The position numbers and the translations under genes are program-made. From Bacillota bacterium (GTDB taxonomy: Bacteria > Bacillota > Clostridia > Ch29), in contig JABVCK010000009.1 of the NCBI GenBank assembly GCA_013540605.1, forward strand, positions 100,341-164,340: a stretch of DNA of 64,000 nt, in the 5' to 3' direction. Position 1 is the stretch's first letter, and each line of letters starts with the position of its first letter. Positions 1-58,222 of this stretch are shown here, in pieces. Under the pieces are notes generated by a model that was not told where the DNA came from, did not search any database, and was given only the letters and a program-made list of their open reading frames with translations.

Positions 1-54
1 TACCATAGGCAGTATAGAAAAATAGCATCATAGAATGTAAAGGGAGGTAGGACA

Positions 55-1848
55 ATGGAGATATATCGTTCCCATGTACTGATTTGTGCAGGTACAGGCT
101 GTACTTCCTCAGGGTCGCAGAGTGTAACGAACGCCTTTGAGCGACTGATAAAGGAAGAAGGGCTTGAGAGGGAAGTAAAGGTGGTAAGGACAGGATGCTT
201 CGGGCTTTGCGAGATGGGTCCTGTTGTAATAATATATCCTGAGGGTGCCTTTTACAGCAGGGTTGAAGAGAAGGATGTAGAGGAAATAGTAAAGGAGCAC
301 CTGATAAAAGGCAGGATTGTAAAGAGGCTTCTTTATGAAGAATCGCTGGACAAAGATACGATAAAATCTCTTAACCAGGTTGATTTTTACAAGAAACAGA
401 TGAGGATTGCCCTAAGGAACTGCGGCGTAATAGATCCTGAAAACATTGATGAATATATAGCTATGGACGGCTACAAAGCTATTGCGAAAGTGTTGACCGA
501 AATGACTCCCGAACAGGTTATAGACGAGGTAAAGAAATCAGGGTTAAGAGGAAGAGGTGGCGGAGGGTTCCCCACCGGAATGAAGTGGGAATTTGCGAGC
601 AAATCAAAGGATGATAAAAAATACGTATGCTGCAATGCCGATGAAGGCGACCCTGGCGCCTTTATGGACAGGAGCGTACTGGAGGGAGACCCCCACTCTG
701 TATTAGAGGCTATGGCTATTGCGGGTTATGCCATAGGATCCGATCAGGGGTATATTTATGTAAGGGCAGAATACCCCATAGCAGTTAAAAGGCTTCAGAT
801 AGCGATAAAACAGGCAAGGGAATACGGAGTACTGGGAAGCAACATACTGGGGACCGGATTTGCCTTTGATATAGATTTAAAGATAGGAGCAGGGGCTTTT
901 GTATGCGGAGAGGAAACAGCCCTGTTGAACTCCATCGAGGGTAAGAGGGGCGAACCGAGGCCGAGGCCGCCATTCCCGGCAGTGAAAGGTTTGTGGCAGA
1001 AACCAACCCTGCTCAACAACGTTGAGACCTATGCAAACATATGTCCCATAATACTAAACGGCGGCGAATGGTTTGCCGGCATAGGCACCGAAAGAAGTAA
1101 AGGAACCAAGGTATTTGCCCTTGGAGGGAAGATAAACAACACGGGCCTTGTGGAAATACCCATGGGAACGACCATCAGGGAAGTTATCTACGAAATCGGC
1201 GGAGGCTGTCCGAACGGTAAAGAGTTCAAGGCTGTACAGACCGGGGGGCCTTCCGGAGGGTGCATACCTGCAGAGCTTATCGATACTCCCATTGAATATG
1301 ACACCCTGGTGTCCATCGGCTCCATGATGGGTTCCGGCGGTATGATAGTAATGGACGAGGATAACTGCATGGTTGACATAGCCAGGTTCTTCCTTGACTT
1401 CACCTGTGATGAATCCTGCGGCAAATGCACATCGTGCAGGGAAGGCACGAGGAGGATGCTGGAGATACTTGAGAGAATAACAGAGGGCAAGGGACGAGAG
1501 ACCGATATAGAGAAGCTGGAGACGCTTGCAAAGAATATCAAGGCATCGGCCCTCTGCGGTCTGGGTCAAACAGCGCCCAACCCGGTGCTGTCCACCCTGA
1601 GATACTTCAGGCATGAATACGAAGCCCACATAAGGGACAAGAGATGTCCGGCGGGTGTATGTACGGCTCTTTTGCAGTATGTGATCGACGCAGATAAGTG
1701 CAAGGGCTGTGGTATCTGTGCCAAGAACTGTCCGGCTAATTGTATTTCGGGCAAACCGAAGACACCGTATGTTATTGATCAGGATAAGTGTATCAAATGC
1801 GGGACATGTCAGGATAAGTGCCCCTTTAATGCGATAGATAAGAAATAG
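55..1848 (+). CDS. NAD(P)H-dependent formate dehydrogenase/hydrogenase flavoprotein subunit, NuoF/HndC family. N-terminal thioredoxin-like [2Fe-2S] domain, FMN/NADH-binding core, C-terminal 2x[4Fe-4S] ferredoxin domain.
   Basis: 597-aa ORF. GGGGF-PTG FMN motif and a C-x-x-C-x-x-x-C cluster typical of NuoF (CDESCGKCTSCREG). C-terminal CKGCGICAKNCP and CIKCGTCQDKCP ferredoxin motifs. RBS AGGGAGG before the ATG at 55. Lies directly upstream of fdhA. Confidence 0.85.
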   Translation: MEIYRSHVLICAGTGCTSSGSQSVTNAFERLIKEEGLEREVKVVRTGCFGLCEMGPVVIIYPEGAFYSRVEEKDVEEIVKEHLIKGRIVKRLLYEESLDKDTIKSLNQVDFYKKQMRIALRNCGVIDPENIDEYIAMDGYKAIAKVLTEMTPEQVIDEVKKSGLRGRGGGGFPTGMKWEFASKSKDDKKYVCCNADEGDPGAFMDRSVLEGDPHSVLEAMAIAGYAIGSDQGYIYVRAEYPIAVKRLQIAIKQAREYGVLGSNILGTGFAFDIDLKIGAGAFVCGEETALLNSIEGKRGEPRPRPPFPAVKGLWQKPTLLNNVETYANICPIILNGGEWFAGIGTERSKGTKVFALGGKINNTGLVEIPMGTTIREVIYEIGGGCPNGKEFKAVQTGGPSGGCIPAELIDTPIEYDTLVSIGSMMGSGGMIVMDEDNCMVDIARFFLDFTCDESCGKCTSCREGTRRMLEILERITEGKGRETDIEKLETLAKNIKASALCGLGQTAPNPVLSTLRYFRHEYEAHIRDKRCPAGVCTALLQYVIDADKCKGCGICAKNCPANCISGKPKTPYVIDQDKCIKCGTCQDKCPFNAIDKK

Positions 1849-1899
1849 GGAAGCATCTATAGCAGAGTATTAAATTGGCCAAGGAGAGGAGTAAACGGT

Positions 1900-4587
1900 A
1901 TGAAGATGATAAGTCTGACTATTGACGGTATTAGTGTTCAGGTGCCTGATGGTACAACGATACTGGATGCTGCCGCCAGCCTGGGTATTGATGTGCCTAC
2001 CTTTTGCCATGATCCCCGGTTGAGACCGGACGGCGCCTGCAGGATATGTGTTGTGGAAGTTGAAAAGGCAAGGAGCCTGGTAACCTCCTGTTCAACTCCT
2101 GTGGGAGAAGGCATGGTAGTATATACTGACAGTCCCAGTGTGGTTGAGGCAAGAAAAGAGATACTCAGGCTGATGTGGGCAAATCACCCGTATAACTGCC
2201 TGACCTGCGAGAAGGCAGGAAACTGCAAACTGCAGGACTACAGCTACAGGTACGGTATAACCGATGAGGATATACAGCTTTTCGCCGGTGAAAAGAAGAA
2301 ACATGAGATAGACGACAGTAATAAGTTTTATATAAGCGATCAGAACAAGTGCATACTTTGCGGCAAATGCGTGAGGATTTGCGGCGAACTTCAGTGTACA
2401 AATGCCATAGGCCGTTCGGACAGGGGTTTCACTACCCATATAACGCCACCCTTTGAAATAAAGCTGGAAACCTCCGAATGCGTATCGTGCGGCAACTGTG
2501 TATCCTACTGTCCTACGGGAGCATTATCGGCGAAGAAGCCGGTAAAATACAGGGAATGGGAAGTAAAACGTGTGGACACCACCTGTACTTACTGCGGCGT
2601 AGGGTGCCAGCTGCAGCTGTTGGTAAAAGATAACAGAGTAGTAGGCGTAGAGCCGGTGAACGGTCCTGCCAATGAGGGCCTGCTGTGCGTCAAGGGTAAG
2701 TTCGGGTACAACTTCATAAACCATCCCGACAGGCTCAAAACACCGCTGATCAAGAAGGACGGCAAATTTGAAGAGGCAAGCTGGGCCGAAGCATTGGAGC
2801 TGGTAGCCGAAAAGCTATCGGAGACCCGTGACAAATACGGTCCCGACGCAGTGGCCGGGCTGTCGTCCGCAAGGTGTACCAACGAAGAGAACTACCTGTT
2901 CCAGAAGCTGATGAGGGGAGCGGTGGGCACCAACAACGTAGACCACTGCGCACGTCTCTGACACTCCTCAACCGTTGCCGGGCTGGCAACAACATTTGGG
3001 AGTGGAGCAATGACCAACAGCATAAAAGAAATAGACAAAGCCGATACAATATTCGTAATAGGCTCAAACACCACCGAGAACCACCCCGTAATAGGATCCA
3101 GGATAAAGAGAGCGGTAAAGAACGGGGCAAAGCTCATAGTAGCCGACCCAAGGGATATAGAGTTATCAAAGCATGCCACTCATTCCATGCGCTTAAAACC
3201 GGGCACCAACATAGCATTACTGAACGGCATGATGAACGTAATAATAGCCGAGGGGTTGCAGGCAGAAGAATACATAAAAGAGCGTACCGAAAACTACGAC
3301 GAGTTAAAGGAACTGGTAAAGGATTATACGCCCGAGAAGGTAGAAGAGATAACCGGCATACCCGCAGAAACAATAAAAGAAGCAGCGCGGCTGTACGCCA
3401 CCTCCGAAAGATCCATGCTGTTTTACGCCATGGGTATAACCCAGCACAGCACAGGCACCCAGCACGTATTCTCAATAGCCAACCTGGCGATGCTGTGCGG
3501 CATGGTAGGCAAAGAAGGCACCGGCGTAAACCCGTTAAGGGGCCAGAACAACGTACAGGGGGCCTGCGATGTGGGCTGTCTGCCCAACTTCATGCCCGGC
3601 TACCAGAAGGTGGGAGACCCTGTCGTAATGGAGAAGTTTGAAAAAGCATGGGGCACAAAACTATCCGACAAAGTGGGCCTCACAGTATCCGAGATAATCC
3701 ATGCCGCCGAAGAGGGGAAAGTAAAAACACTCTATATAATGGGAGAGAACCCCATGGTATCCGACCCCGACATAACCCATGTAAAGAAAGGGTTAGAAAA
3801 CTTAGACTTCTTAGTAGTCCAGGATATATTCCTGACCGAGACCGCAGAACTGGCCGACGTAGTGCTGCCCGCCGCATCCTTTGCGGAAAAGGACGGCACC
3901 TTCACCAACACCGAGCGAAGGGTGCAGAGAATAAGGAAGGCCATAGAGCCCATAGGCCAAAGCCGGGCCGACTGGGAGATAATCCAGGATATAATGAACC
4001 TCATGGGCTATACCCAGAACTTCAAAGACGCCGCCGGTATAATGGACGAAATAGCCGCTGTAACACCCCAGTACGCAGGTATCGACTATCAGCGTCTTGA
4101 AAACGGGAGCCTGCAGTGGCCGTGTCCTACCAAGGACCACCCAGGCACAGGGTATCTGCACAGCGGCAAATTCTCAAGGGGTAAAGGCCTATTTAAGCCA
4201 TCGCCCTATACACCGGCCGACGAGCAGCCCGATGATAAATACCCCTTAATCCTGACAACCGGCAGGGTGCTCTACCACTACCATACACGAACCATGACCA
4301 AGCGTGTCGAAGGGCTGGAGGCATTAGTACCCGAGAGCTATATAGAAATAAGCCCCTACACCGCGGGCAAACTGTCCGTAAAAGACGGTGACACCGTAAA
4401 AGTAAGCTCAAGGCGCGGAGAAGTAGCAGTAAAAGCAAAAGTAACCGACCGTCTGGATGACGACGTAGTATTCATGCCCTTCCACTTTGCCGAGGGCGCA
4501 GCCAACATGCTCACCAACACGGCGTTGGACAGCATAGCCAAGATACCCGAGCTAAAGGTATGCGCAGTCAAAGTAGAGAAGGTATAA
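1900..4587 (+). CDS. fdhA: Formate dehydrogenase catalytic subunit FdhA (molybdopterin/tungstopterin). Selenoprotein: UGA at 2959-2961 is read as selenocysteine.
   Basis: ORFs 1900..2961 and 3010..4587 are in the same frame (offset 1110 = 370 codons). A single TGA falls inside the conserved CAR-L-[U]-HSSTVAGL active-site motif. N-terminal 2Fe-2S and 4Fe-4S cysteine motifs are followed by an MopB and molybdopterin-binding domain. A SECIS-like hairpin lies 12 nt downstream of the UGA. Confidence 0.85.
2974..2990 (+). other. Bacterial SECIS-like hairpin (GTTGCC-GGGCT-GGCAAC) immediately 3' of the in-frame UGA
   Basis: A perfect 6-bp stem with a 5-nt loop starts 12 nt after the TGA at 2959-2961. 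Spacing and position match bacterial fdh SECIS elements. Confidence 0.6.
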
Positions 4588-4624
4588 AGTAAAATACCTT
4601 AAAAAAGGAGGAGTTATTTTATCT

Positions 4625-5494
4625 ATGGAAAAGCGAATTTTAGCACCGGCTCAGGTAGCAGACGCCATGGTAGGTGTAGGATGCAAAAAATGCAGCTTAA
4701 AGACGTCCCAGATGATGCTTTTAGGAATATTTGCAGGGATGTTCATAGCCTTCGGCGCTTTTGCATCAGGGATGATATCCCATTCTATCGAAAACGTAGG
4801 TCTAGCCAAATTTGCAGGGGCAGCAGTATTCCCCGTAGGACTAATGCTCGTAGTAATATGCGGCGCCGAACTGTTTACCGGCAACAACCTCATAACCCTG
4901 GCCCTGTTCAACAAAGAAGTAACCGTATCCCAGATGCTCAAGAACTGGGTAGTAGTATATATAGGCAACTTCATAGGTTCCATAGCAGTAGCTCTATTAA
5001 TTTACTGGTCCGGCCTTTTAAACACAAGCGGCGGTGGTCTGGGGGGTCTTGCAATACGGGTAGCCTCTGCCAAGGTAAGCCTGACAATGGGCGAAGCCGT
5101 GGTAAGGGGGATACTTTGCAACATGCTCGTAGTACTGGCGGTATGGGCGGCAATAGCAGCCCAGGACGTAATAAGCAAGATATGGGCGTGCTGGTTCCCC
5201 ATCATGCTCTTTGTACTGTCGGGTTTTGAGCACAGCATAGCCAACATGTACTTCATCCCCGTAGGCATGCTGGCCAAGGGCAGCGCCAAGCTGGCGGAGG
5301 CCAGCGGTCTTGCAGCCGACAAGCTGGCGGGTATAAACGTGGGCACATTCCTTATCAACAACATAATACCCGTAACCATAGGCAACATAATAGGCGGCGC
5401 GTTCATAGTAGGCTGGGTTTACTGGTATGTGTTCAAGGGCTGCACCAAAGCAGCCGAAGCCCCTGCCACCGCTTCCCAATCCGTTGCAAAATAG
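4625..5494 (+). CDS. focA: Formate/nitrite transporter family channel (FocA/FdhC-like)
   Basis: 289-aa polytopic membrane protein with FNT-family architecture. Sits directly after fdhA. RBS AAGGAGGAG. Confidence 0.8.
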   Translation: MEKRILAPAQVADAMVGVGCKKCSLKTSQMMLLGIFAGMFIAFGAFASGMISHSIENVGLAKFAGAAVFPVGLMLVVICGAELFTGNNLITLALFNKEVTVSQMLKNWVVVYIGNFIGSIAVALLIYWSGLLNTSGGGLGGLAIRVASAKVSLTMGEAVVRGILCNMLVVLAVWAAIAAQDVISKIWACWFPIMLFVLSGFEHSIANMYFIPVGMLAKGSAKLAEASGLAADKLAGINVGTFLINNIIPVTIGNIIGGAFIVGWVYWYVFKGCTKAAEAPATASQSVAK

Positions 5495-5520
5495 GTATAA
5501 TGAATTTAAATAGAATAATC

Positions 5521-5541
5521 AAAAGCGGCATTGCCGCTTTT
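5521..5541 (+). terminator. Rho-independent terminator hairpin (AAAAGCGGCA-t-TGCCGCTTTT)
   Basis: Perfect 10-bp stem ending in a T-run, 27 nt after the focA stop. Confidence 0.6.
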
Positions 5542-5575
5542 GATTATTTATCCGGATGATAAGGAGGCAGAAATA

Positions 5576-6115
5576 ATGTTGGAGGAAATCTTGAGCTACA
5601 ATAGAAGTTTTGTAGAAGAGCGCAGAAAAGAAGGTAAGGATAAGAAGATCAGCGGGCATGCCCAAAAGGAGGCAATGATATTCACCTGTATGGACACAAG
5701 GCTGGTGGGCCTTGTAGAAGATGCCATGGGATTTAAAAGGGGAGAAGTTAAGGTCTTAAAGAATGCGGGAAACACTATAAGAGACAATTGTGATGATGTC
5801 ATAAGAAGCATATCCCTTGGTATTCTTATGATGGGTATTAAGGAAGTCTTTGTAGTAGGACACAAAGACTGCGGCATGAAAAAGCTTACCGGAGACAAGA
5901 TAGCACAGGCAATGAGGGACCGTGGTATTGATGAAAACGCAATAGCCTCCGTGGACCTGGAAAAGTGGGCAGGAGTTATTAATAATGAGGCGGAAAATGT
6001 GGCAGAAGTGGTAGCAGCGATAAAAAACTCAAAATTCATACCAAAGGATGTAGCTATCCATGGCCTGATGATCGATCCGGACAGCGGAGAGCTTGAAGAA
6101 GTCCAATACATATAA
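5576..6115 (+). CDS. Beta-class carbonic anhydrase
   Basis: C-x-D-x-R (CMDTR) and H-x-x-C (HKDCG) zinc-ligand motifs. The ATG at 5576 is preceded by AGGAGG. The ORF track's upstream TTG start at 5531 lies inside the terminator hairpin, so it was not used. Confidence 0.8.
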   Translation: MLEEILSYNRSFVEERRKEGKDKKISGHAQKEAMIFTCMDTRLVGLVEDAMGFKRGEVKVLKNAGNTIRDNCDDVIRSISLGILMMGIKEVFVVGHKDCGMKKLTGDKIAQAMRDRGIDENAIASVDLEKWAGVINNEAENVAEVVAAIKNSKFIPKDVAIHGLMIDPDSGELEEVQYI

Positions 6116-6274: not shown

Positions 6275-6919
6275 ATGGCCAAAAATACACGAAAAGAAAT
6301 TGCATATGACTACTTGTATGAAGGGATTATTAGCAGTAAGATCCCGCCGGGAGCTCCTATCATAGAACAGGAGATATCAAACACCTTAGGCATCAGCCGT
6401 ACGCCTGTCCGCGAAGCGCTAAAACAGTTGGAGGCCCAAGGACTGGTTAAGTATGTCCCACAGCGCGGAACTTTCGCTGAAGAGATAGGCATGCAGGATG
6501 TGGAAGAAATTTTCGCTTTAAGAGAAGCACTTGAGATACTCGCTCTTAAAGTATCGATAGAAGTAATACCGGATGAAGAAATTCTCAAGATGGAGAAAAT
6601 GTTGAAAGCGCTTGATCATAATAGTACTTTTGAGGATTTTTATGAAAGCGACCGTAGTATTCATAACCTTATAGTAAGATATGGCCAGAATAGGAGGTTA
6701 AACGTTTTCCTTAACAGCTTAAATTCGCAGATTGAAATGCTACGCCGGATTTCAGCTGTAACTCCAAAAAGACTTGAAAAATCGAAACAGGAGCATATGG
6801 AAATTCTCATGGCATTGAAAAAACGCGACCAGGTGAAGGCTTCCAAAGCTTTGAGTGAGCATATCAGAAACGTCAAAGAAAGCGTTATCAGGACGTATCA
6901 GAATCAAAGGTATGTATAA
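6275..6919 (+). CDS. GntR-family transcriptional regulator (FadR/FCD C-terminal domain)
   Basis: N-terminal winged-HTH (TLGISRTPVREALKQLEAQGLV) and an FCD-like C-terminal domain. Flanked by TTGTATACAA-type palindromes. Confidence 0.8.
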   Translation: MAKNTRKEIAYDYLYEGIISSKIPPGAPIIEQEISNTLGISRTPVREALKQLEAQGLVKYVPQRGTFAEEIGMQDVEEIFALREALEILALKVSIEVIPDEEILKMEKMLKALDHNSTFEDFYESDRSIHNLIVRYGQNRRLNVFLNSLNSQIEMLRRISAVTPKRLEKSKQEHMEILMALKKRDQVKASKALSEHIRNVKESVIRTYQNQRYV

Positions 6920-6930
6920 AAATTTTTTTG

Positions 6931-6958
6931 ATACAGATTGTATACAATCAGCATACAA
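6931..6958. promoter_or_regulatory. Candidate GntR operator: perfect palindrome TTGTATACAA plus tacaatcagcatAcaa
   Basis: A perfect 10-bp palindrome overlaps a possible -35 (TTGTAT-17-TATATA) upstream of the first RraA-like gene. Confidence 0.5.
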
Positions 6959-7116
6959 AATATATACACCCGGGAAACATTATTGGCGAGGGGGGTGACT
7001 GTTAGGAGGAAAGCATAATCGCATGTATTTGCGTTGAAGCTGCTATACAGAAAGAAAACGGTAAGCACAGTATGTACAAGCATAAAAAGAGTTGATAGGA
7101 AGAGGGGAAATGCGAT

Positions 7117-7743
7117 ATGTCTTTAACAGAAAATGAACTGCTTGAGTTATTGAAACTACCCACGGGGAATATTTGCGATGCCAACGACAAGTGCGGCAAT
7201 ATGGATCCTGCAATAAAGCCTGTTGACCCAAAAACAAAAATGGCTGGGCCGGCTTATACAGTCCGATGTCAACCTGGAGATAATATCACCATCCATAAGG
7301 CAATCTACGAAGCACCAAAGGGATCAGTATTGGTAGTGGATGCCCATTCCTATATTGGAGCTGGACCATTCGGCGAAATCATGGCTATTGCCAGCCAGAA
7401 ACGTGGCCTTGCAGGGCTTGTTATAGATGGCGCTTGCCGCGATGCATCTGAAATAGAGGAACTGGGGTTTCCAGTATTCAGCCGTGCCATTAATCCAGGC
7501 GGTACAGTTAAAGAAAGTGTAGGAGAAACCGATCTGGTTATTCAGTGTGGAGGGGTTGTGGTCAGACCGGGGGATATTGTGGTAGGCGACCGTGACGGAG
7601 TAGTTGTTATTCCCCGGGAAAAAGCCCGGACGGTATTGGAGAAAGCAAAGGCTATAGCTGATAGAGAAGCGCAGGTAACGGAAATGCTTCTCCAGGGCAA
7701 AACAATTTTGGAGATATATCAATTCGAGAAATTGAAGGGCTGA
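7117..7743 (+). CDS. RraA-family protein (HMG/CHA aldolase or oxaloacetate decarboxylase-like), paralog 1
   Basis: 208 aa. Conserved RraA/MenG-fold core (GD-N-x-x-H, VVDA..GAG.FGE, GLVIDGACRD). Confidence 0.75.
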   Translation: MSLTENELLELLKLPTGNICDANDKCGNMDPAIKPVDPKTKMAGPAYTVRCQPGDNITIHKAIYEAPKGSVLVVDAHSYIGAGPFGEIMAIASQKRGLAGLVIDGACRDASEIEELGFPVFSRAINPGGTVKESVGETDLVIQCGGVVVRPGDIVVGDRDGVVVIPREKARTVLEKAKAIADREAQVTEMLLQGKTILEIYQFEKLKG

Positions 7744-7774
7744 TAAACACAATTCTAGCAGGAGGGATTAATAA

Positions 7775-8446
7775 ATGGAGAAGTTGAACAAAATAGATGT
7801 GTCCATTATAGAAGGCTTTAAAGCCCTGGATACGACATGTGTATCCGACGCCCTTGACCGTCTAGGGATTCCAGGAGGGTTGGAAGGAATAAAACCCGTG
7901 GTTGGTGGAACAACCATTTGTGGAACTGCTTTTACTGTGCACTATGTACCTTGTGGAATCGAGAAAGGAACTGTAGGGGATTTCCTGGATGATGTTGAAC
8001 CGGGTCAGGTTGTAGTTATAGACAACGGGGGCAGGACTTACTGCACGGTTTGGGGAGACTTGATGGCTATAAGTGCATCTAGGCGCGGCATAGAGGGAAC
8101 GGTAATTGACGGTGTCTGCCGGGATGTCCCTACCATTAAAAGAGTAAAGTATCCGATATTCACCAAAGGATACTATATGGTAACGGGTAAAGACCGTGTT
8201 GAGGTAGATGGGGTTAATGTGCCGGTGGCTGTGTCAGGGATTCAGGTTAAGCCTGGAGATATCATACTGGGTGATGACACAGGAGTAGTAGTAATACCGC
8301 AGGAGAGGGCAGGAGAAGTGTTAGAACTGGCAAAGAGTATTGCAGAGAAAGAGGCCCTTATGGAAAAGGAAATACTGGCAGGGAAAACCCTACGCGAAGC
8401 CCGTGCCAATGTGAACTATCATCACCTGCAAACAAGAGAGAAGTAG
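7775..8446 (+). CDS. RraA-family protein, paralog 2
   Basis: 223 aa. SDALDRLGI, VIDGVCRDV and GD motifs shared with paralog 1. Confidence 0.75.
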   Translation: MEKLNKIDVSIIEGFKALDTTCVSDALDRLGIPGGLEGIKPVVGGTTICGTAFTVHYVPCGIEKGTVGDFLDDVEPGQVVVIDNGGRTYCTVWGDLMAISASRRGIEGTVIDGVCRDVPTIKRVKYPIFTKGYYMVTGKDRVEVDGVNVPVAVSGIQVKPGDIILGDDTGVVVIPQERAGEVLELAKSIAEKEALMEKEILAGKTLREARANVNYHHLQTREK

Positions 8447-8580
8447 ACAACGTATAGAAGAGCGCAGAATGTAAGTGTTTCCAATAATTGATACTTACGT
8501 GTCTACGAAACAGGTTTAATTTTGTCGAAATATGTGATATTTTGAACTATATAATATCGGAAAATACCACTTAGTTCAGT

Positions 8581-8596
8581 ATTCCTAGCTAGGAAT
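8581..8596. promoter_or_regulatory. Perfect 16-bp palindrome ATTCCTAGCTAGGAAT between the promoter region and the RBS of the transporter operon (operator candidate)
   Basis: Exact dyad symmetry, 25 nt upstream of the SBP start codon and downstream of a TATAAT-like -10. Confidence 0.4.
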
Positions 8597-8620
8597 CAAA
8601 ATAAAAAAGGGGGTAAAAAA

Positions 8621-9802
8621 ATGAAAAAGACACTTGCATTGATATTTGCGTTGGCAATGGTTTTACCACTTGCTGCATGCAGTCAGGGGTCAAGCGATCC
8701 GGCCTCTGGTGAGCTTGAACCGATTAAGATTGGCGCAGTTTTGTCCCAGACCGGTACTGTTGCCCATGCCGGTATTAACGCTCAGAGGGCTTGTGAGATT
8801 CTACTTGAAGAAGTTAATGCTGCCGGCGGAATAAAGGGACGTAAGGTCGAGCTCATTGTTGAAAACTCCAATACAGAGCCGGAAAGGGCGGTTACCGCTG
8901 CTTTGAAACTCACAAACGAGAATAAGGTTCTGGCAATAATTGGCCCGGACAACACATCTACCGCGATTGCTGTAAGGGATCAGGTCGCTGAAGTAGATGA
9001 AATAGTGTCAATTTCTGTAACGGGTAGTTCTCCAAAACTCACCGAAGGCAATCCGCGCTGGTTTTTCCGCGGTGCAACTCCCGCAAACTACCAGATGAGC
9101 GCTCTCACCAAATATATGGTGGATGAGCTCAAGTTTACCAAATTTGCGGTACTGGCCGATGCTACCCTCACCGATCAAGCAGATGCACTAGTTGCAGACC
9201 TGGAAAAATACAATCTCAAACCGCTCGCAATTGAGACTCATAAGTCCGGTGATACAAACTTCAACGGTCAGCTTATTAAGATTAAGCCGTATAATCCCGA
9301 GGCAATAATCTTTATTGGCTACGTCACCGAATGCGCGAGCGCCATTAAACAAGCTCGTGACATGGGCATTGACGCTCAGTTTGCCGGCAGCATCGGTATA
9401 GTGTACCAGGAGCTCTGTGATATTGGTGGAGATATTGTTGAAGGAACGCTCGGCACCATAGGTTTTACTGTAGCCAACCCGGATCCGAGAGTACAGGAAT
9501 TTGCAAAGAAATTTAAAGAAAAATATGGCGAAGAACCTGACCATGCTGCGGGCCAAGCTTATGACCAGCTTTCCCTCGTTCTCGATGCTATAAGAAATGA
9601 AGATCTGAGCTTCGACCCGAAGGATATTAAAAGCGACAGAACCCTCATCCGCGACTACCTTGAAAACAAAACCTATGGCTATAATGGCCTCACCGCGATG
9701 ATCAATTACACTAAGGAGGAACATACCGCTTACAAAATGGTTAACGTAATGCAAATAAAGGGCGGGACTTGGACAATTCTTGTTCCATCTAGCGAATTAT
9801 AG
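8621..9802 (+). CDS. ABC transporter substrate-binding lipoprotein, Liv/branched-chain-amino-acid type (Peripla_BP_6)
   Basis: Lipoprotein signal peptide (LAACSQG). Type I periplasmic-binding fold typical of LivJ/LivK-like proteins. Confidence 0.75.
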   Translation: MKKTLALIFALAMVLPLAACSQGSSDPASGELEPIKIGAVLSQTGTVAHAGINAQRACEILLEEVNAAGGIKGRKVELIVENSNTEPERAVTAALKLTNENKVLAIIGPDNTSTAIAVRDQVAEVDEIVSISVTGSSPKLTEGNPRWFFRGATPANYQMSALTKYMVDELKFTKFAVLADATLTDQADALVADLEKYNLKPLAIETHKSGDTNFNGQLIKIKPYNPEAIIFIGYVTECASAIKQARDMGIDAQFAGSIGIVYQELCDIGGDIVEGTLGTIGFTVANPDPRVQEFAKKFKEKYGEEPDHAAGQAYDQLSLVLDAIRNEDLSFDPKDIKSDRTLIRDYLENKTYGYNGLTAMINYTKEEHTAYKMVNVMQIKGGTWTILVPSSEL

Positions 9803-9838
9803 AAACATGATTACAAAATCTGAATGGAGGACATTAAA

Positions 9839-11146
9839 ATGACAGTTGATTTACGCACAAAACTTGGACCCTTAACACTGAAAAACCCACTAGTTTCAGG
9901 AGGAGGACCGGTAGCCGGAACCTTGCAGCACATAAAGAATGCCTGCGATGCGGGCTTCGGTGCAATTGTCACAAAGACTGCTTCATATTATGGCGAATTC
10001 CAGAGATATCCAAGGCCTGTATATAATATTTGCGACATAAGAGTGGCGGCAGACGATCCGATCGGTATCTCCGAATGCTCCTGGATGCATAACGACCACA
10101 ACTCTGTATACCCGCCTCATCAGTTTGTTAAATTCTTGCCGGAGGCATCAGAGTATTGCAAGAAGAATGACTGCGTTCTTATTGGTAGTTTTGCAGGTGC
10201 CGGGCTGGAACAGTGGGAAAGGATGGCAAGGGATTATGTAGATGCAGGATGCCAGGCACTCGAATTGAACTTCTGTTGTCCTTACCCACAGGTAATGCCT
10301 GAGACCGCGCAAGGGAACGAGCACCTTATCGGCCAGACATTTGGGGATAACCCCGCCCTTGGCGCTGAAGTCATCAAGAGGTTGAAGCAGATTGTCGATG
10401 TTCCCATATTCCCGAAAATGCCGCCTACTGCTAGAAAGGACATTGTTAACATAGCAAAGATGTATAAAGAAGCTGGTGCCGATGGGATCACCATCTATGC
10501 TAACTCCATGGTTCTTAAGATAGACATTGAAACTGGTGAACCGATGGGCTGGGGGGCTTCGATAGGCAGCTCGCACGGCCATATGCTTGATACATGCCAG
10601 GACACCGCTAAAATAGCCAAAGAGGTTCCGGATTTCGCAATAATGTCTGGCCGTGGAGCCAGGTACTGGTACGATTGTATTGAGCTTCTCATGGCAGGCG
10701 CTGCTTCGGTACAGTACTCCGCTGCTATACACGTGTATGGGCTGAAGCATGTTAAGAGTATGCTCAATGATATGGAAAACTGGCTTGAGCGTAAAGGTTA
10801 TAAGTCTATTGAACAGGTTAAGGGGCTAGCTTTACCGAAGATCTACCGCTCCGCAGATGTTAAGAACAGAGTAAAAGCGTTGGTTGCGAAGGTAGATGCT
10901 AGTAAGTGTATCGCCTGCGGTCGCTGCGCTGAGGTATGCTTCTATGACGCTGCCGAGTTGTTTGTTAAAAATGGAAAAGGTGCTGCAAAAATCAATCAGG
11001 ACAACTGCGCCGGCTGCACCATCTGTGGACAAGTGTGTCCCAAGAAGTGTATTAGCTTTACTGAAAGGGCAGAAGAAATCGAATACCTTAGAGCGCTGGG
11101 TTCTGCTCATCCGGATCTGCTGCCTGATATCTTCGGCGAAAAATAA
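9839..11146 (+). CDS. Dihydroorotate/dihydropyrimidine dehydrogenase-family FMN oxidoreductase (PreA-like) with a C-terminal 2x[4Fe-4S] ferredoxin domain
   Basis: TIM-barrel DHOD-like core. C-terminal CIACGRCAEVC and CAGCTICGQVCP motifs. GGAGGA RBS 6 nt before the ATG at 9839. Confidence 0.65.
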   Translation: MTVDLRTKLGPLTLKNPLVSGGGPVAGTLQHIKNACDAGFGAIVTKTASYYGEFQRYPRPVYNICDIRVAADDPIGISECSWMHNDHNSVYPPHQFVKFLPEASEYCKKNDCVLIGSFAGAGLEQWERMARDYVDAGCQALELNFCCPYPQVMPETAQGNEHLIGQTFGDNPALGAEVIKRLKQIVDVPIFPKMPPTARKDIVNIAKMYKEAGADGITIYANSMVLKIDIETGEPMGWGASIGSSHGHMLDTCQDTAKIAKEVPDFAIMSGRGARYWYDCIELLMAGAASVQYSAAIHVYGLKHVKSMLNDMENWLERKGYKSIEQVKGLALPKIYRSADVKNRVKALVAKVDASKCIACGRCAEVCFYDAAELFVKNGKGAAKINQDNCAGCTICGQVCPKKCISFTERAEEIEYLRALGSAHPDLLPDIFGEK

Positions 11147-11173
11147 TGTGATATCCCTCGCTTTTGTTTAATT

Positions 11174-11211
11174 GCATATAGCGGTCTTATAATACTACGG
11201 CCGCTATATGC
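11174..11211 (+). terminator. Strong hairpin (11-bp perfect stem GCATATAGCGG/CCGCTATATGC) after the DHOD-like gene. Candidate terminator or attenuator.
   Basis: Perfect stem, but the 3' tail is not clearly U-rich. A similar TATAGCGG...CCGCTATA hairpin at 21850-21881 precedes another copy of the GGGGACATT repeat. Confidence 0.35.
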
Positions 11212-11251
11212 AGAACACAAGGTTTATTGCATGATTGAATATGGCTTGAGT

Positions 11252-11417
11252 GGGGACATTCCGCGGCAAGGAATACCCGCGTAGCAGCGGTGTGTCCCCA
11301 TACCGATCGGGGACATTCCGCGGCAAGGAATACCCGCGTAGCAGCGGTGTGTCCCCATACCGATCGGGGACATTCCGCGGCAAGGAATACCCGCGTAGCA
11401 GCGGTGTGTCCCCATAC
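11252..11417. repeat. Tandem array of a 57-bp hairpin repeat: 2 full units plus 1 slightly shorter unit. Unit is GGGGACATTCCGCGGCAAGGAATACCCGCGTAGCAGCGGTGTGTCCCCATACC(GATC).
   Basis: Units at 11252-11308, 11309-11365 and 11366-11417 are identical. The outer stem is GGGGACA/TGTCCCC and the inner stem is CGCGG/CCGCG. The array ends 18 nt before the leuC-like ATG, directly abutting the RBS AAAGGAGGA. Confidence 0.9.
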
Positions 11418-11435
11418 CTTAAAGGAGGAATTTTT

Positions 11436-12671: not shown

Positions 12672-12695
12672 CCAACCATAGAGGGAGGGAAACCC

Positions 12696-13229
12696 ATGAG
12701 TCAGGTAATAAAAAAGAAGGTTGTCGCAATACTTGGAGACGATGTAGACACCGATGTGATATTCCCGGCTAGATACTTGGGCACATTTGATGAACAAGAG
12801 ACAGCTAATCATCTTTTTGAAGATGTGGATCCGTCTTTTAGAAATAAAGTAAAAAATGGAGGCGTGGTTATCGTAGGTAAGAACTTCGGATGCGGATCGG
12901 CCCGTGAACAAGCTGCAATGGCGCTTAAATATGCGGGAGTGACTATGGTAGTAGCGGTGTCTTACAATAGATCGTTTTATAGAAATGCAATAAACAACGG
13001 GCTGCTGCTAATGGAGTTTGAAAATCCGGAAGACTACCAGGCTTTTAAGGAAGATAACCAACTTATAGTGGATTATGCCTCCGGTATAATAAAAAACGAA
13101 ACAACAGGAAGAGAAATAAGATGCCTTGCTCCGAACAAATTTATACTTGATATAATCTCCGCGGGTGGAATATGTCAGCTTATAATAAAAAATCAAAGTA
13201 AAAACGGGGGAAAGCTATGCTTACTGTAA
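12696..13229 (+). CDS. Aconitase-family dehydratase small subunit (LeuD-like swivel domain)
   Basis: 177 aa. GDDVDTDVIFPARYL motif typical of LeuD. Confidence 0.75.
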   Translation: MSQVIKKKVVAILGDDVDTDVIFPARYLGTFDEQETANHLFEDVDPSFRNKVKNGGVVIVGKNFGCGSAREQAAMALKYAGVTMVVAVSYNRSFYRNAINNGLLLMEFENPEDYQAFKEDNQLIVDYASGIIKNETTGREIRCLAPNKFILDIISAGGICQLIIKNQSKNGGKLCLL

Positions 13230-14083: not shown

Positions 14084-14097
14084 AGGAGGCATGAACG

Positions 14098-16574: not shown

Positions 16575-16623
16575 CTGCTCTGAGAGCAAAATATTATAAC
16601 ATTTTACAGGAGGAGATACTATT

Positions 16624-17313: not shown

Positions 17314-17332
17314 ACTTAAGGAGATATCAAAA

Positions 17333-18577: not shown

Positions 18578-18582
18578 GTCAG

Positions 18583-19002
18583 ATGACAAAAGAGATAATC
18601 CTAAAAGGTAGAAAGGTTGTGAAGGGCAAAGCAGCTGGCTATGCGGTTGTGTCGACAGAGCCGATCAGTTTTAACGGGGGCGTTGATCCGGCTACTGGTA
18701 TAATGACGGAAGAGGAACATCCTATCAAGGATGTGAACATTGCCGGGAAAGTGCTGGTTTTTCCGACAGGTAAGGGTTCTACCGGCGGTTCTAACCGTAT
18801 TTACGATATGGCTGACCGCAAGACTGCCCCAGTCGCTTTCATACAAGCAAATGCCGAACCAATTACTACGATTGGCGCGATAATGGCGGATATCCCCGTT
18901 GTAGATAAACTCGACCAGGATCCTTTCGCAGTGATTGAAACCGGCGATTACGTAGAGGTTGATGCGGATAATGGAATAGTCAAAGTGATCAAAAAGGAGT
19001 AA
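18583..19002 (+). CDS. AcnX-type hydro-lyase small subunit (DUF126 swivel domain)
   Basis: 139 aa with the KGKAAGYAVVSTEPISFNGGVDP...FPTGKGSTGGS pattern of DUF126. Translationally coupled to the large subunit. Confidence 0.65.
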   Translation: MTKEIILKGRKVVKGKAAGYAVVSTEPISFNGGVDPATGIMTEEEHPIKDVNIAGKVLVFPTGKGSTGGSNRIYDMADRKTAPVAFIQANAEPITTIGAIMADIPVVDKLDQDPFAVIETGDYVEVDADNGIVKVIKKE

Positions 19003-19681: not shown

Positions 19682-19683
19682 CT

Positions 19684-29769: not shown

Positions 29770-30655
29770 AAAGATGGCGCATTTCATGGCATTCTTCCTT
29801 CACCTGGCTTATTTCCAGAAGCACTTCTCCGTCCTGATCCGGTACCGGATATCCAGCTGCAGTGCCTTATGCCTTCCGTAGTAATGTTTTCCGCAAACTT
29901 CTTCCGGTAACACAGCCCTTTATGCCCAGTAAGTAATCTTATCATATGCTCTCTGCCAGCAGGCTCACCTGCTCGTTATTTTCCGCATGCCATGTCGCCT
30001 TCCGCCCGAAATCCTTTATGAAGTTACCCCTCAGCTATACCTCTTGGGGACCTCTTTTCGCTAATGTTGCCAAATCTCACTTTCCTCTATCATTTCCATA
30101 CCTCCTAACAAAATTCCTCCGACTTGCCGCCGCCGGTCTTCACCAGCATGATATCTCCTATTACCATTTCCTTATCTACCGCCTACACATGTCATATACC
30201 GTAAAGGGTTCGATCGACAATCGCGGTAAAGGGCTTCCATCTCAACCCCCGTTTTTCCTTCGACCGAAACCCTGTTTCTATTTCAACGGCGCTTATACCC
30301 TCTGTTCAGTTCTCGAAGGCCATGTCAACTCCGCTTATATTCAGGGTGGCACATAGGTATCAGGTTCATGTTCGCTTGGCTCCCATTATTCACCACCTGG
30401 GCAACGGCAAAGTTAACATCGCCCTTCTTCATCCGGCCCTTTTCAATGAGGTCGATTGTCTCTGCTTTTCATATACCCCTTCGGCAACCGCTTCCCTGGT
30501 TGTAACATCCTACCGCCACGTTTTGGCCCTGCCGTCGGTATTAAAATGGGTAAACTGCTCAAAATCACCTCCTCGATTTTGGTACACATTTCGCCTGTTC
30601 CCGCCGGCGTCCTGCATTCTTCCACGTGGGAGGGCAAGAGATACCTGGATGGTTC
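29770..30655 (-). pseudogene. Decayed inverted duplicate of a moa segment: moaA 3' end, moaC-like region with indels and frameshifts, and a frameshifted MOSC-domain remnant
   Basis: The reverse complement of 30040-30650 aligns at nucleotide level with 28330-28900 (moaA end plus moaC). For example, cctaacaaaattcctccgacttgccgcc at ~30095 matches the reverse complement of 28861-28890, and tcctcgattttggtacacatttcgcctgttcccgccggcgtcctgca matches the reverse complement of the moaA stop region. Minus-strand frames at 29770-29935 read ...KKFAENITTEGI... and GEVLLEISQVKEECHEM, which are MOSC-domain motifs split by frameshifts. Only short ORFs remain. Confidence 0.65.
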
Positions 30656-30665
30656 CGGGGGGCCT

Positions 30666-31883
30666 ATGTGCGTCAGCCTGGGGCACTGTATTCCCGAAAT
30701 AGCTGATGAAATGTACGAACAGGCTAAGAAACTTTGCTTTGCGTACAGAATACAGTTCGATAACGATCCCTTGGAGAAGCTGTCAGAAAAACTTGCTCAG
30801 TGGGCTCCGGGAAACCTCAACAGATCCTATCTGGTGAACAGCGGTTCAGAAGCGAATGAAATGGCCTTGAAACTTGCCAGGAGTTACTGGATGGAAAAGG
30901 GCATGCCTTCAAAGACAATGATAATCTCCAGATGGTCAAGCTATCATGGAAGCACCATAGGCGCACTCTCAATGTCGGGCCATGTATCAAGGAGAATGGA
31001 GTACTTCCCCTATCTGGAGATGTATCCGCAGGTAGCGCCGCCTTACTGCTACCAGTGCCCCTTCGAGAAAAAACATCCCGAATGCGGCTGCATGTGCGCA
31101 AAGCAATTGGAGGATGCCATACACAGGATTGGTTCCAAGAACATATCCGCCTTCATAATGGAGCCGATAATAGCAGCTGCTGCAGCGGGAGTCTATGGAC
31201 CTCCGGAATACTATAAAATGATACGGGAGATCTGTGATAGACACGATATTCTGCTGATAGCCGACGAAGTGGTGACAGGATGCGGGAGAACCGGCGAGAC
31301 CTTCGCAATGAAGCACTGGGGAGTTGTACCGGATATTATCACTTTTGGCAAGGGAATAAGTTCCGGGTTTACTCCTCTCGCAGGGTTCATAGCCGGGGAC
31401 CATATATATGATGCAATACTGAACGGCTCAGGTCTGTTTCTGACAGGACATACCTTTGCAGGGAATCCGCTTTCAGCCGCTGTCGGATACAGCGTTCTAT
31501 CCTACATCGAAAAACACAACCTGGTCGAAGGAGCCCGCGAAAAAGGCGAATACATGGAAGCCAAACTAAAGGGATTGATGGAAAAGCACGAGATCGTAGG
31601 GGATGTGAGAGGAAAGGGTTTGCTCTGGGGAATAGAGTTTGTAGAAGACCGAGAAACCCATAAACCCTTTGATGCAAGCAAGAACGTCACCGGCAGGATG
31701 GTAGGGTATTCGATGGGCAATGGCCTCGTAGTATTTGCCAGCCAGGGAACCATAAACGGAGTAGCGGGGGATGCAATAATTGTTACCCCTCCGCTGACAA
31801 TCACCCATGAGCAGATTGATGAACTGGTTGAACTGCTGGAAAAATCAATTATTCAACTTACCGAGAAATTGCGGAGCTTATGA
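30666..31883 (+). pseudogene. Class III (omega-type) PLP-dependent aminotransferase, 5'-truncated at the junction with the inverted moa duplicate
   Basis: Homology starts abruptly at EGKRYLDGSGGPMCVSLGH, a motif normally found ~50-60 residues into class III aminotransferases. The PLP-lysine motif TFGKGI is present. Everything upstream is antisense pseudo-moaC sequence. The first in-frame ATG after the junction is 30666. The ORF track's 30456 start would give a chimeric N-terminus. Confidence 0.55.
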
Positions 31884-56729: not shown

Positions 56730-57686
56730 ATGGGGAAAAAAGACTTGATACTTACTGCAAATATGGGGGACGACAGTATCTGCATTTATAATGGGAAGTC
56801 TTTCGAAATGTTGGAAAGGCTGGTTGTTAAGCCGTCGGGTTTTAAGCTGTTCAACACAAGTCATTTTACTAAAGGGCCGGCGGCAGGTCCGGGACATCTT
56901 TACCATTATAAATCAAAGAACATCGTTTTGGCGCTGAATGTATACGACGACAGCTTACTGTTTATTGATCTTGATACGTTTAAGCCGATGGACACGATAT
57001 TTGCCGGGAACCACCCGTATCAAATAGAAGTATTTGAAGAAGCAGATAGGGCCTTTGTCAGCAACTATGATTCCGACAGCATATCGGTTATTGATCTATC
57101 AATACCGCAGATAGTAGGACAGATACCCTGCGGGATGATGCCTCAGTCATTGGTTATCAATAGAAACACCAGCTGCCTTTATGTTACAAATACAGGCAGC
57201 GATTATATATCAATAATAGATGTGCTTACCCTTGATAAACTATTCTGTTTAAAAGTGGATGGAAACCCGGTTGATATTTGCAATGATGCGGAGGGAGAGA
57301 GGATTTTTGTAATCGTGCGGCACCCTGAAAGGCAGGTAAAGGACCAGCTGGTCGAATATGATATGGTGACAGGCAAGAGGCTTAGGTCGATGGAATTAGG
57401 ACTAATGCCCGTTGATATCCTCTATAACAATATGAATGAAAGTGTTTATGCTCTGGACGCAATAGAAAACAATCTCAGGATAATTAATGTTGAAAGTTTC
57501 GACTTTGAAACTACCATACACTTGGGCAGGATGCCTATAAACCAGTGCCTGAACAGCGAAAGGAGCCTTCTGTTTGTAGTTTGTATGATCGAAAACAAAT
57601 TGTATGTAGTTGATACACACAGGCATCAAATAATTAGAGAAATACCCACAGGCATAGAGCCTTCATCGGTGCTGTTCGTCAGCTAG
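56730..57686 (+). CDS. YVTN-family beta-propeller repeat protein (YncE-like)
   Basis: Repeated ...LYVTNTGSDYISIID... / ...FVSNYDSDSISVID... 40-residue beta-propeller units. Confidence 0.55.
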   Translation: MGKKDLILTANMGDDSICIYNGKSFEMLERLVVKPSGFKLFNTSHFTKGPAAGPGHLYHYKSKNIVLALNVYDDSLLFIDLDTFKPMDTIFAGNHPYQIEVFEEADRAFVSNYDSDSISVIDLSIPQIVGQIPCGMMPQSLVINRNTSCLYVTNTGSDYISIIDVLTLDKLFCLKVDGNPVDICNDAEGERIFVIVRHPERQVKDQLVEYDMVTGKRLRSMELGLMPVDILYNNMNESVYALDAIENNLRIINVESFDFETTIHLGRMPINQCLNSERSLLFVVCMIENKLYVVDTHRHQIIREIPTGIEPSSVLFVS

Positions 57687-58222
57687 TCGGACTTTGGATT
57701 TATCAAGGCATTAACTATGCTGCCAAACAGCAGCGGAGCGCTGTTTTCCCAGTTTTCGCATATACTCCTGGCCAATTTATGGGACGTTACTCTCAACTCG
57801 AGGTTAAAGGTCGTTTTATTGTGCTCTATTATTCTAAGGGTCACAAGATATTCATTCTCCGATTCTATGGTATACCTCCCGATGATTTGTTTTTCTCGTT
57901 TTATTTGTTCTCCATTATCAGAAAGATACTCAGAAACCTGCTGCCTGATTTTTTGAGGTATTCTATTTTTGAACAGGGTGAGAGTGCTTTCACCCTTCTG
58001 TTCTAACCTGTAGAAGTGCTTGGATTTGTCCTGATAACACGTTACAAAGCCGCTATTAACAAGGTCTCCCAGCATTTGCTGCATAGCAAAGTAGTTCATA
58101 AGGTTATTCCCCATTACAATTTGCGTCAAATCGTTTTTTGTAAGGGGTATTTTGCTCTCGGACATTATATACAAAAGGAGAAGTTTGTTTTCAGCCAGCT
58201 CTTCAGTATCCCTGTAAAGCAT
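57683..58222 (-). CDS. PadR-like transcriptional regulator (DUF4364-type)
   Basis: 179 aa. N-terminal winged-helix-like segment (KLLLLYIMSE...LTKNDLTQIVM...YFAMQQMLGDLVNSGFV). RBS GGAGGCG before the ATG at 58222. Confidence 0.4.
   Translation of the reverse strand: MLYRDTEELAENKLLLLYIMSESKIPLTKNDLTQIVMGNNLMNYFAMQQMLGDLVNSGFVTCYQDKSKHFYRLEQKGESTLTLFKNRIPQKIRQQVSEYLSDNGEQIKREKQIIGRYTIESENEYLVTLRIIEHNKTTFNLELRVTSHKLARSICENWENSAPLLFGSIVNALINPKSD

Follow-up and report, generated by a model that had tools for sequence, protein, structure and literature searches.

Among bacterial selenoproteins, the formate dehydrogenase alpha subunit (FdhA) was the first to become known and has the widest distribution (PMC13188914). 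In Escherichia coli FdhH (the product of fdhF, structure 1AA6), the UGA codon stands at Sec140 and is followed by a His codon, and the SECIS follows the UGA immediately on its 3' side, still within the coding region; its apical loop is rich in G and lies about 20 nt past the UGA (PMC4605307). In the NAD+-dependent FdsABG of Rhodobacter capsulatus (6TG9), the FdsA subunit carries a Mo-ligand cysteine, Cys386, at the equivalent position. Genes of the selenocysteine (Sec) type are found in Bacillota, Thermodesulfobacteriota, Nitrospirota and other phyla, those of Moorella mulderi (L031), Geosporobacter ferrireducens (L007) and Clostridiales bacterium PH28_bin88 (L062) among them.

In this work, we analyzed a fdhA gene located in a 64-kb stretch of DNA (hereafter, the window) whose host is an uncultured bacterium of the Bacillota from a methanogenic community that degrades terephthalate. 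A sequence-only reading of this DNA had proposed that two adjacent open reading frames are one selenoprotein gene split at a UGA codon. Our results support this proposal, and we estimate a probability of about 93% that the in-frame TGA encodes the active-site Sec of a single formate dehydrogenase gene.

The ORF listing shows two frames on the + strand, as are all features given here with their coordinates, at 1900..2961 (353 aa) and 3010..4587 (525 aa). Both 2959-1900 = 1059 and 3010-1900 = 1110 are divisible by 3, and translation of 1900-4587 yields 896 codons with a single internal stop at codon 354 (TGA 2959-2961) and a terminal TAA, which bears out the earlier claims that the frames are co-linear and in phase and that this TGA is their sole interruption; the peptide letters given around the TGA were likewise correct. 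The fdhA gene was thus delimited to 1900..4587 by its single frame, its domains and its match to NCBIfam TIGR01591. The proposal of one Sec-containing product of 895 aa stands as regards the single gene, whereas its length depends on the start codon, being 895 aa from ATG 1900 and 893 aa from ATG 1906. An AGGAG motif at 1887-1891 lies 8 nt ahead of the former and 14 nt ahead of the latter, and the second methionine (M3) is nearly invariant in our alignment A1. Translation may start at ATG 1906 rather than ATG 1900, since homologues begin at this second Met and the product annotated in the near-identical genome GCA_030017455.1 is 893 aa long.

The joined protein scored 937.7 bits against TIGR01591 (Fdh-alpha; equivalog cut-off 666.25) over the whole profile (positions 1-672 of 672), and contained the Pfam domains Fer2_4, NADH-G_4Fe-4S_3, Fer4, Molybdop_Fe4S4, Molybdopterin (E 2.4e-92) and Molydop_binding. 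Its best PDB matches were formate dehydrogenases of the FdsA type (E about 1e-241). Judged by these profile and structural matches, the joined product is a full-length formate dehydrogenase alpha subunit. The claim that the TGA falls exactly at the Sec/Cys active-site position was confirmed by aligning the joined translation to homologues of both types: codon 354 (2959..2961), the predicted Sec at the Mo/W ligand position, aligned with X140 (Sec140) of E. coli FdhH (1aa6_A), with the X residue of an F420-dependent formate dehydrogenase (9t1s_L) and with the Mo-ligand Cys386 of R. capsulatus FdsA (6tg9_A), and the pair U354-H355 matched X140-H141 of 1aa6 and C386-H387 of 6tg9. This column was Cys in all 120 of the best full-length database homologues, and in 79 homologous genes from other genomes, belonging to several phyla, the equivalent codon was TGA in 59 and TGC or TGT in 20. 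Further, the active-site Arg (R547) and the Cys residues of the proximal 4Fe-4S cluster (C229, C232, C236 and C263) occupied invariant columns in A1.

Downstream of the TGA, a hairpin was located at 2974..2990, with stem arms GTTGCC (2974-2979) and GGCAAC (2985-2990) enclosing the loop GGGCU (2980-2984; GGGCT in the DNA). Its geometry, a 6-bp stem and a 5-nt loop starting after 12 nt (2962-2973), is as the sequence-only reading described it, and both the resulting 18-nt spacing from UGA to loop and the G residues at loop positions 1 and 2 agree with published constraints on bacterial SECIS elements (PMC13188914; PMC4605307). The same reading had looked to RNA folding, and the hairpin indeed appears in the minimum free energy (MFE) fold, but its stability is unremarkable (z = -1.51 for 2950-3020): it was not significantly stabler than shuffled sequence over this interval, with 17 of 200 shuffles folding as well or better. 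As the fold of the single sequence was not significant, the evidence for a SECIS was taken from comparative tests, for which the Cys-type genes served as controls, given that they encode the same peptide in the hairpin region as the TGA-type genes. All six pairs of the apical stem were formed in 51 of the 55 distinct sequences of Sec type but in just 1 of the 20 of Cys type (Mann-Whitney p about 1e-13), and compensatory changes at wobble positions were present in TGA-type genes only. Across the stem, 98.8% of the alignment cells were paired, three pairs changed on both sides, and none of 500 shuffles reached the observed covariation score; pair 21-33, for instance, was GC in 26 Sec-type genes, CG in 14, UA in 11, GU in 2 and AU in 2. 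The loop was GGUCU in 52 of the 55 Sec-type genes and variable in the Cys-type genes. The GGGCU loop of the window occurred in 2 of the 55 Sec-type sequences, being shared only with a Nitrospirota locus (L080), and with such a rare loop SelB may not recognize the element efficiently.

A covariance model (R1) built from 54 Sec-type relatives, with the window left out, recovered the element with 76.2 bits (E 4e-15) as its sole match in the window, and scored Cys-type homologues at 35.7-62.5 bits. The stretch matched by R1, 2956..3014, is also matched by the Rfam model RF01989 (SECIS_3), with 50.7 bits and E 4.8e-11 in a 301-nt search, a score below the gathering score of 63; in a calibration, six bona fide Sec-type relatives, including that of M. 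mulderi, also fell under it. Being absent from the scan at gathering threshold, the element was not assigned to SECIS_3 and was classed as a bacterial SECIS of the same kind only. An optional lower stem surrounds the apical hairpin at 2962..3004 (2962-2968 with 2998-3004, and 2970-2971 with 2996-2997) and is present in the MFE fold (-17.7 kcal/mol) as well as in the SECIS_3 consensus. It was rejected as a conserved feature, with a mean of 5.7 of 9 pairs formed in Sec-type vs 5.6 of 9 in Cys-type genes and 62.8% of cells paired; all 9 pairs are formed only in the window sequence. By the covariation restricted to Sec-type genes and the R1 score, which strengthen the initial suggestion of a bacterial SECIS, we regard 2974-2990 as a genuine SECIS core, selected in TGA-type genes only. 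The contrast between Sec-type and Cys-type genes constitutes a reusable control, as it indicates that a hairpin within a coding region is selected as RNA and not imposed by the peptide.

The alternative that survives best, itself very improbable, is that of a pseudogene in which a Cys codon (TGC or TGT) mutated to TGA, leaving an inactive enzyme whose translation stops at residue 353. TGA is indeed one substitution away from either codon, UGA is the normal stop of 13 of the 55 window genes, and no Sec machinery was detected in the window or the flanking DNA examined: ARAGORN found no tRNA-Sec in the 64-kb window and 60 loci, Pfam found no SelA, SelB or SelD among about 55 window ORFs, signature motifs of these three proteins gave spurious matches only in all loci, and about 30 kb of extra flanking DNA contained no selA, selB, selD or tRNA-Sec. 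Nevertheless, the 541 codons past the TGA are free of stops and retain all residues that are invariant in the family, the same TGA recurs in most of the homologous genes, and both paralogous copies of the gene in GCA_030017455.1 retain it. The synonymous-site covariation that preserves the hairpin, specific to TGA-type genes and shared by the window, likewise argues against decay.

It is still less probable that the enzyme is genuinely split, that is, that both ORFs are translated separately, the second from ATG 3010, into two polypeptides that assemble. This ATG does open the second ORF and is preceded by purine runs resembling GGGAG or GGAG; however, it encodes Met371, a conserved residue of the GAMTN motif found in all homologues, and these nucleotides are also present in Cys-type homologues, whose genes are not split. 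A start at 3010 would also lose codons 2962-3009, and with them the catalytic His355 and the metal ligand. Of these 16 codons, which link the TGA to the second ATG, 9 are invariant in A1 (H355, T358, V359, G361, L362, A363, T365, G367 and S368), which implies that they must be translated.

Similarly slight is the possibility that a sense codon was turned into TGA by faulty sequencing or assembly. In its favor, the window looks as though two fdhA-focA paralogues had been collapsed or recombined during assembly; this ambiguity, however, concerns the 5' end and the downstream context, and the region of the TGA is identical in both paralogues. A sense codon on resequencing had been named as an outcome that would overturn the selenoprotein proposal, and instead the TGA recurs in four independent assembled copies: the same TGA with identical flanks is present in an NCBI metagenome-assembled genome (MAG; two copies), in a contig of JGI metagenome 3300001095 and in a Logan contig of SRR9855028, and an identical TGA and SECIS were recorded in loci L001 (two copies), L003 and L004. 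Finally, a genome-wide reassignment of UGA to a standard amino acid (code 4 or 25), for which nothing specific speaks, is the least probable alternative, since the window genes that end in TGA indicate a standard code, and a scan of the window for long same-frame ORF pairs joined by TGA returned no interrupted gene other than fdhA, the sole coherent case.

The comparison between GCA_030017455.1 and the window displayed a mosaic pattern of identity, with two paralogous copies. One tentative reading, which we consider rather unlikely, is that the organism possesses two Sec-type fdhA-focA modules, whose catalytic 3' part of about 3.1 kb would be kept identical by gene conversion, whose N-terminal Fe-S domains and flavoproteins would differ, and whose loop would reflect relaxed or shifted recognition by SelB. 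In this arrangement, the identical part covers the UGA, the SECIS and focA, and as partner flavoprotein one copy has a HydB-like NuoF and its paralogue a 1011-aa fusion of NuoF and GltD. If true, a single selenoenzyme core would serve two different electron-transfer modules, and the rare GGGCU loop common to both copies would point to a SelB whose loop recognition is relaxed or shifted. On the present data, neither the mosaic pattern nor the GGGCU loop can be told apart from an assembly artefact or neutral variation.

The single-gene annotation is already in GenBank for the near-identical MAG GCA_030017455.1, where the product is annotated as one protein across the TGA. How the joined protein is recorded is thereby shown indirectly, by this 893-aa product and, in the MAG of the window itself, by a single accession number (MBA1335150) between those of NuoF and FocA. 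The split is confined to the gene calls of IMG and Logan. Such Sec-blind gene callers produce fragments of 353 aa and 525 aa, which can distort metabolic reconstructions; in the source habitat, a terephthalate (TA) reactor, the methanogenic community probably uses formate as a key carrier of electrons between species. As no other bacterial selenoprotein is as widespread as formate dehydrogenase, the biology described here is already known: this is a textbook selenoprotein, annotated whole in a public genome.

Directly upstream of fdhA and in the same orientation, ORF 55..1848 encodes a 597-aa NuoF/HydB-like flavoprotein subunit with FMN/NAD-binding features, containing the Pfam domains Complex1_51K, NADH_4Fe-4S, 2Fe-2S_thioredx and Fer4 and scoring 510.9 bits against TIGR01959 (nuoF_fam), under the cut-off of 558.65. 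In related contigs, a NuoE-like gene of 163 aa and a gene of 122 aa lie upstream of the NuoF-like gene, the NuoE-like gene being found in loci L001, L088 and L089. The hallmarks of the FdsABG type are thus present, namely the NuoG-like N-terminal Fe-S module on FdhA and the adjacent NuoF-like and, in related contigs, NuoE-like genes, and the NuoF-like flavoprotein is the presumed electron-transfer partner of FdhA. Downstream, at a distance of 37 nt, a FocA-type formate transporter is encoded at 4625..5494 (Form_Nir_trans, E 1.6e-82; 237.1 bits against TIGR00790 fnt, cut-off 232.3), followed at 5531..6115 by a beta-class carbonic anhydrase (Pro_CA, E 2.3e-17), whose adjacency is kept in loci L002 and L003 and which is possibly co-functional through supply or removal of CO2 or bicarbonate. 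A TupA-like transporter gene located behind a Moco/W riboswitch lies 17 kb from fdhA.

With the integration of these findings, we propose that 1900(1906)..4587 encodes the catalytic alpha subunit of a Mo- or W-bis-pyranopterin formate dehydrogenase, whose N-terminal Fe-S domains resemble those of NuoG, as is typical of enzymes linked to NAD(H) or ferredoxin. From what is known of Sec decoding, the UGA at 2959-2961 would be read as Sec delivered by SelB, presumably bound to the hairpin and encoded with the other sel genes elsewhere in the genome, with no termination; Sec354 would then ligate the metal beside the conserved His355 and Arg547. FdhA would most likely interconvert CO2 and formate in concert with the NuoF-like flavoprotein encoded upstream and with NuoE-like subunits, the latter probably encoded just before the window, and the adjacent FocA channel would move formate.

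Regarding known systems, the Sec-type fdhA genes of other bacteria share 53-65% protein identity with the window gene, carry TGA at the same codon, and have, equally far from the TGA, the same 6-bp SECIS hairpin, likewise VAGLA-encoded; the window differs from them in its GGGCU loop in place of the prevailing GGUCU, and in its perfect 9-bp lower stem. In comparison to SECIS_3, the window matches all 59 model positions from the UGA and has the same two-tier stem, except for two consensus pairs that are non-canonical because the register of the apical stem is shifted by one position. E. coli FdhH has the same Mo/W-bisPGD fold (window residues 223-894 aligned with chain residues 2-687, E 3e-187), the same UGA-His order and a SECIS in the same place; however, the window protein has an extra N-terminal NuoG-like module of 220 residues with 2Fe-2S and 4Fe-4S domains, its gene stands beside that of a NuoF-like subunit and not hydrogenase-3 genes, and its SECIS loop is GGGCU. 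FdsA of R. capsulatus, among the best full-length structural relatives (window residues 4-892 aligned with 25-931, E 1.5e-241), shares the N-terminal Fe-S architecture and the NuoF/NuoE-type partner subunits. The window differs from FdsABG in having UGA/Sec where FdsA has Cys386, and in a NuoF-like subunit that adds a thioredoxin-like 2Fe-2S domain and two ferredoxin domains, thereby resembling HydB of bifurcating hydrogenases.

Translated straight through, 1900-4587 comprises 896 codons; besides the terminal stop there is a lone internal stop, TGA at 2959-2961 (codon 354), whose flanking residues are [28 protein letters not shown]. This bears out the sequence-only reading of two co-linear, in-frame ORFs separated by a TGA, listed on the plus strand as 1900..2961 (353 aa) and 3010..4587 (525 aa), the latter in the frame of 1900 and having as its first ATG the Met of GAMTN. 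The start of the joined gene, fdhA, is ambiguous (1887-1908): AGGAG is followed after 8 nt by ATG 1900, yet homologues and the NCBI call start at the equivalent of ATG 1906, so that the product has 895 or 893 aa. For protein searches, Cys was placed at residue 354, and the joined FdhA displayed the Pfam domains Fer2_4, NADH-G_4Fe-4S_3, 4Fe-4S ferredoxin, Molybdop_Fe4S4, Molybdopterin (E 2.4e-92) and Molydop_binding, and scored 937.7 bits on NCBIfam equivalog TIGR01591 (formate dehydrogenase subunit alpha), above its cut-off of 666. The observation is thus confirmed, and our results support a single selenocysteine (Sec)-containing FdhA with a probability of about 0.93.

Residue 354 aligns opposite Cys386 of the solved chain 6tg9_A (in TCARVCH, numbering counted from chain residue 329), which is the Mo ligand and has His387 next to it. 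In searches with a 60-residue query, it was found opposite X140, the non-standard residue of E. coli FdhH (1aa6_A, in CARVXHGPSVAGL) and its classical Sec140, as well as opposite an X in 9t1s_L. Cys occupies this column in 120/120 of the best full-length database homologues (<=68% identity), within DHCARLCH(A/S)STV; since this sample is biased to unsplit proteins, the codon was read directly in 80 fetched genomic loci, being TGA in 59, TGC in 10 and TGT in 10. TGA-type genes occur in Bacillota, Thermodesulfobacteriota, Nitrospirota, Actinomycetota, Chloroflexota and others. These alignments and the 59 genomic homologues place the TGA at the active-site Sec/Cys position of formate dehydrogenases (FDH), as had been proposed. 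Formate dehydrogenase is the archetypal bacterial selenoprotein, with the widest spread (PMC13188914).

The hairpin described 12 nt past the TGA is present as GTTGCC/GGGCT/GGCAAC at 2974-2990. Its geometry, a 6-bp stem with a 5-nt loop starting with GG and a UGA-to-loop distance of 18 nt, agrees with the published model of the bacterial SECIS (bSECIS), and a conserved loop G is expected ~20 nt past the UGA (PMC4605307). Folding of 2950-3020 recovered this stem and loop, although the stability (-22.2 kcal/mol, z = -1.51) was reached by 17/200 shuffles and is unremarkable alone, so that the single sequence leaves room for chance. Further, the hairpin lies within the codons for V-A-G-L-A-T, which are near-palindromic in DNA, and the stem might therefore be a mere by-product of the peptide. 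Homologues with TGC or TGT at codon 354 (Cys-type), whose peptide is identical to that of TGA-bearing (Sec-type) ones, constitute a natural control, and 59-nt codon-registered segments were compared (55 distinct Sec-type versus 20 Cys-type). The apical 6-bp stem (2974-2979 with 2985-2990) was fully paired in 51/55 Sec-type but only 1/20 Cys-type segments, with means of 5.93 and 3.95 pairs of 6, respectively (Mann-Whitney p ~1e-13). The Sec-type loop was GGUCU in 52/55, against six different loops in the Cys-type; the window carries GGGCU (2980-2984), the U being replaced only in its lineage and in a Nitrospirota locus, L080, and this loop still fits the published bSECIS pattern G[G|U] (PMC13188914). 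Among Sec-type segments, pairs at third codon positions co-vary: pair 21-33 is GC in 26, CG in 14, UA in 11, GU in 2 and AU in 2, and pair 24-30 is CG in 46, AU in 8 and GC in 1. Across 54 relatives, window excluded, 98.8% of apical helix cells are paired and three pairs have changed on both sides, with a covariation score reached by 0/500 shuffles and far lower values in all slid registers. A lower stem, present in the MFE fold and in Rfam, was rejected as a conserved feature: it averages 5.7 pairs of 9 in Sec-type and 5.6 in Cys-type segments, has 62.8% of cells paired, and is perfect in the window only.

A covariance model trained on the same 54 Sec-type relatives matched the 64-kb window just once, at 2956-3014, with 76.2 bits, within the range of training members (74.7-77.8) and above that of Cys-type homologues (35.7-62.5). 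The Rfam model SECIS_3 matched the same segment end-to-end (50.7 bits, E 4.8e-11 in a 301-nt search); it was missing from the whole-window scan because this score lies below the gathering score of 63, as do those of six bona fide Sec-type loci, Moorella mulderi among them, and the threshold is too narrow to be informative. Taken together, the pairing contrast, covariation and model match identify the hairpin as a bacterial SECIS.

Other explanations of the interrupted frame fare less well. A pseudogene is unlikely, as the 541 codons past the TGA are intact, every invariant family residue is kept and the hairpin is under selection. Separate translation of two polypeptides would leave out the catalytic His355 and the metal ligand. 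A sequencing error, with a sense codon on resequencing, is opposed by the recurrence of TGA and SECIS in both fdhA copies of the related assembly GCA_030017455.1, in a Logan assembly and in IMG metagenome 3300001095, from a terephthalate-degrading TA community (PMC6052044). Reassignment of UGA as a sense codon is excluded because ordinary TGA stops end 13/55 window genes and no further gene in the window has an in-frame TGA interruption. The Sec reading assumes decoding machinery in this organism; tRNA-Sec, selA, selB and selD were not found in the window or the fetched flanks.

The window proteins are identical to GenBank MBA1335145-MBA1335202. The proposed annotation as one 895-aa gene stands as to the single gene, but it is already in GenBank, since GCA_030017455.1 carries an 893-aa product called across the TGA; IMG and Logan calls give fragments of 353 and 525 aa. 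In the MAG of the window itself, only one accession number separates NuoF (MBA1335149) from FocA (MBA1335151) and neither fragment is recorded from NCBI, which suggests a single CDS as well. The locus represents an annotation fix, not a discovery.

We also compared window 1-5558 with two loci of GCA_030017455.1 (JASEIP010000016.1), L001 (5377-10935) and L002 (7282-10870), which hold fdhA-focA copies ~12 kb apart. Both copies are identical from window-equivalent nt 2276 through the focA end, and differ in the 5' Fe-S domain and partner gene (597-aa NuoF versus 1011-aa NuoF-GltD fusion). The window joins the upstream context of copy 1 to the downstream context of copy 2 (carbonic anhydrase, GntR), without the intervening mobA, fdhD and sigma-54 regulator genes; its fdhA departs from both copies only at 2278-2475, which holds 73/74 differences from copy 1, the remaining one being at 4089. 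This mosaic reflects either gene conversion plus deletion or assembly collapse over a 3.1-kb perfect repeat.

Upstream of fdhA lies a 597-aa NuoF/HydB-like flavoprotein gene (Pfam), preceded in related contigs by a NuoE-like and a 122-aa gene; downstream are a FocA-type formate channel (Pfam, NCBIfam) and a beta-carbonic anhydrase (Pfam). Region 21732-28982 contains a Moco/tungsten riboswitch (RF01055, 68.7 bits), then genes for a TupA-like ABC transporter binding protein (231 bits on NF041772, whose cut-off is 400), TupB-like protein and ABC ATPase, followed by two moeA genes (MoeA and a MoeA-PBP fusion, PRK14498, 780 bits), MoaA and MoaC. An inverted partial duplicate of moaC pairs 28536-28886 with 30111-30462 (three arm pairs, 91-100% complementary); the minus-strand copy lacks an intact ORF, probably represents a pseudogene remnant, and reaches into the 5' extension of an aminotransferase call (30456..31883) whose true start is probably further downstream. 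Elsewhere, 6275-20718 resembles a so far uncharacterised cluster for organic-acid catabolism, with a GntR/FCD regulator, three RraA-like aldolase paralogues, a branched-chain-type ABC transporter, a DHO_dh-ferredoxin fusion, large and small aconitase-family subunits, AcnX and an isocitrate/isopropylmalate dehydrogenase-like gene. A Clostridiales-2 sRNA match (RF02937, 58300-58425, minus strand, 65.2 bits versus gathering 58.6) lies upstream of a DUF4364 gene (57683..58222). At the window end (61174-63998, minus strand) are two transposase genes (Mutator family and DDE_Tnp_1), and other assemblies diverge downstream of the MFS gene, pointing to a junction that is mobile or variable.

The riboswitch, found immediately upstream of fdhA in several relatives, and the TupA-like/Moco gene cluster hint at possible tungsten use by the FDH. 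At 32159-37307 (plus strand), a complete Rnf cluster (RnfC, D, G, E, A, B) is consistent with ferredoxin/NAD-linked energy conservation beside the FDH and the HydABC whose genes lie just upstream in L001 and another related locus, L088. From this context, FdhA would be an NADH-, possibly ferredoxin-linked CO2 reductase/formate dehydrogenase, perhaps tungsten-dependent, serving electron transfer by way of formate in a Bacillota member that is syntrophic or acetogenic. Its top solved-structure matches, 9wxb_B and the R. capsulatus chain 6tg9_A (both E ~1e-241, residues 4-892), are NAD-linked FdsA-type enzymes and represent its closest solved relatives, with F420-dependent, HDCR and E. coli FdhH enzymes ranking next.
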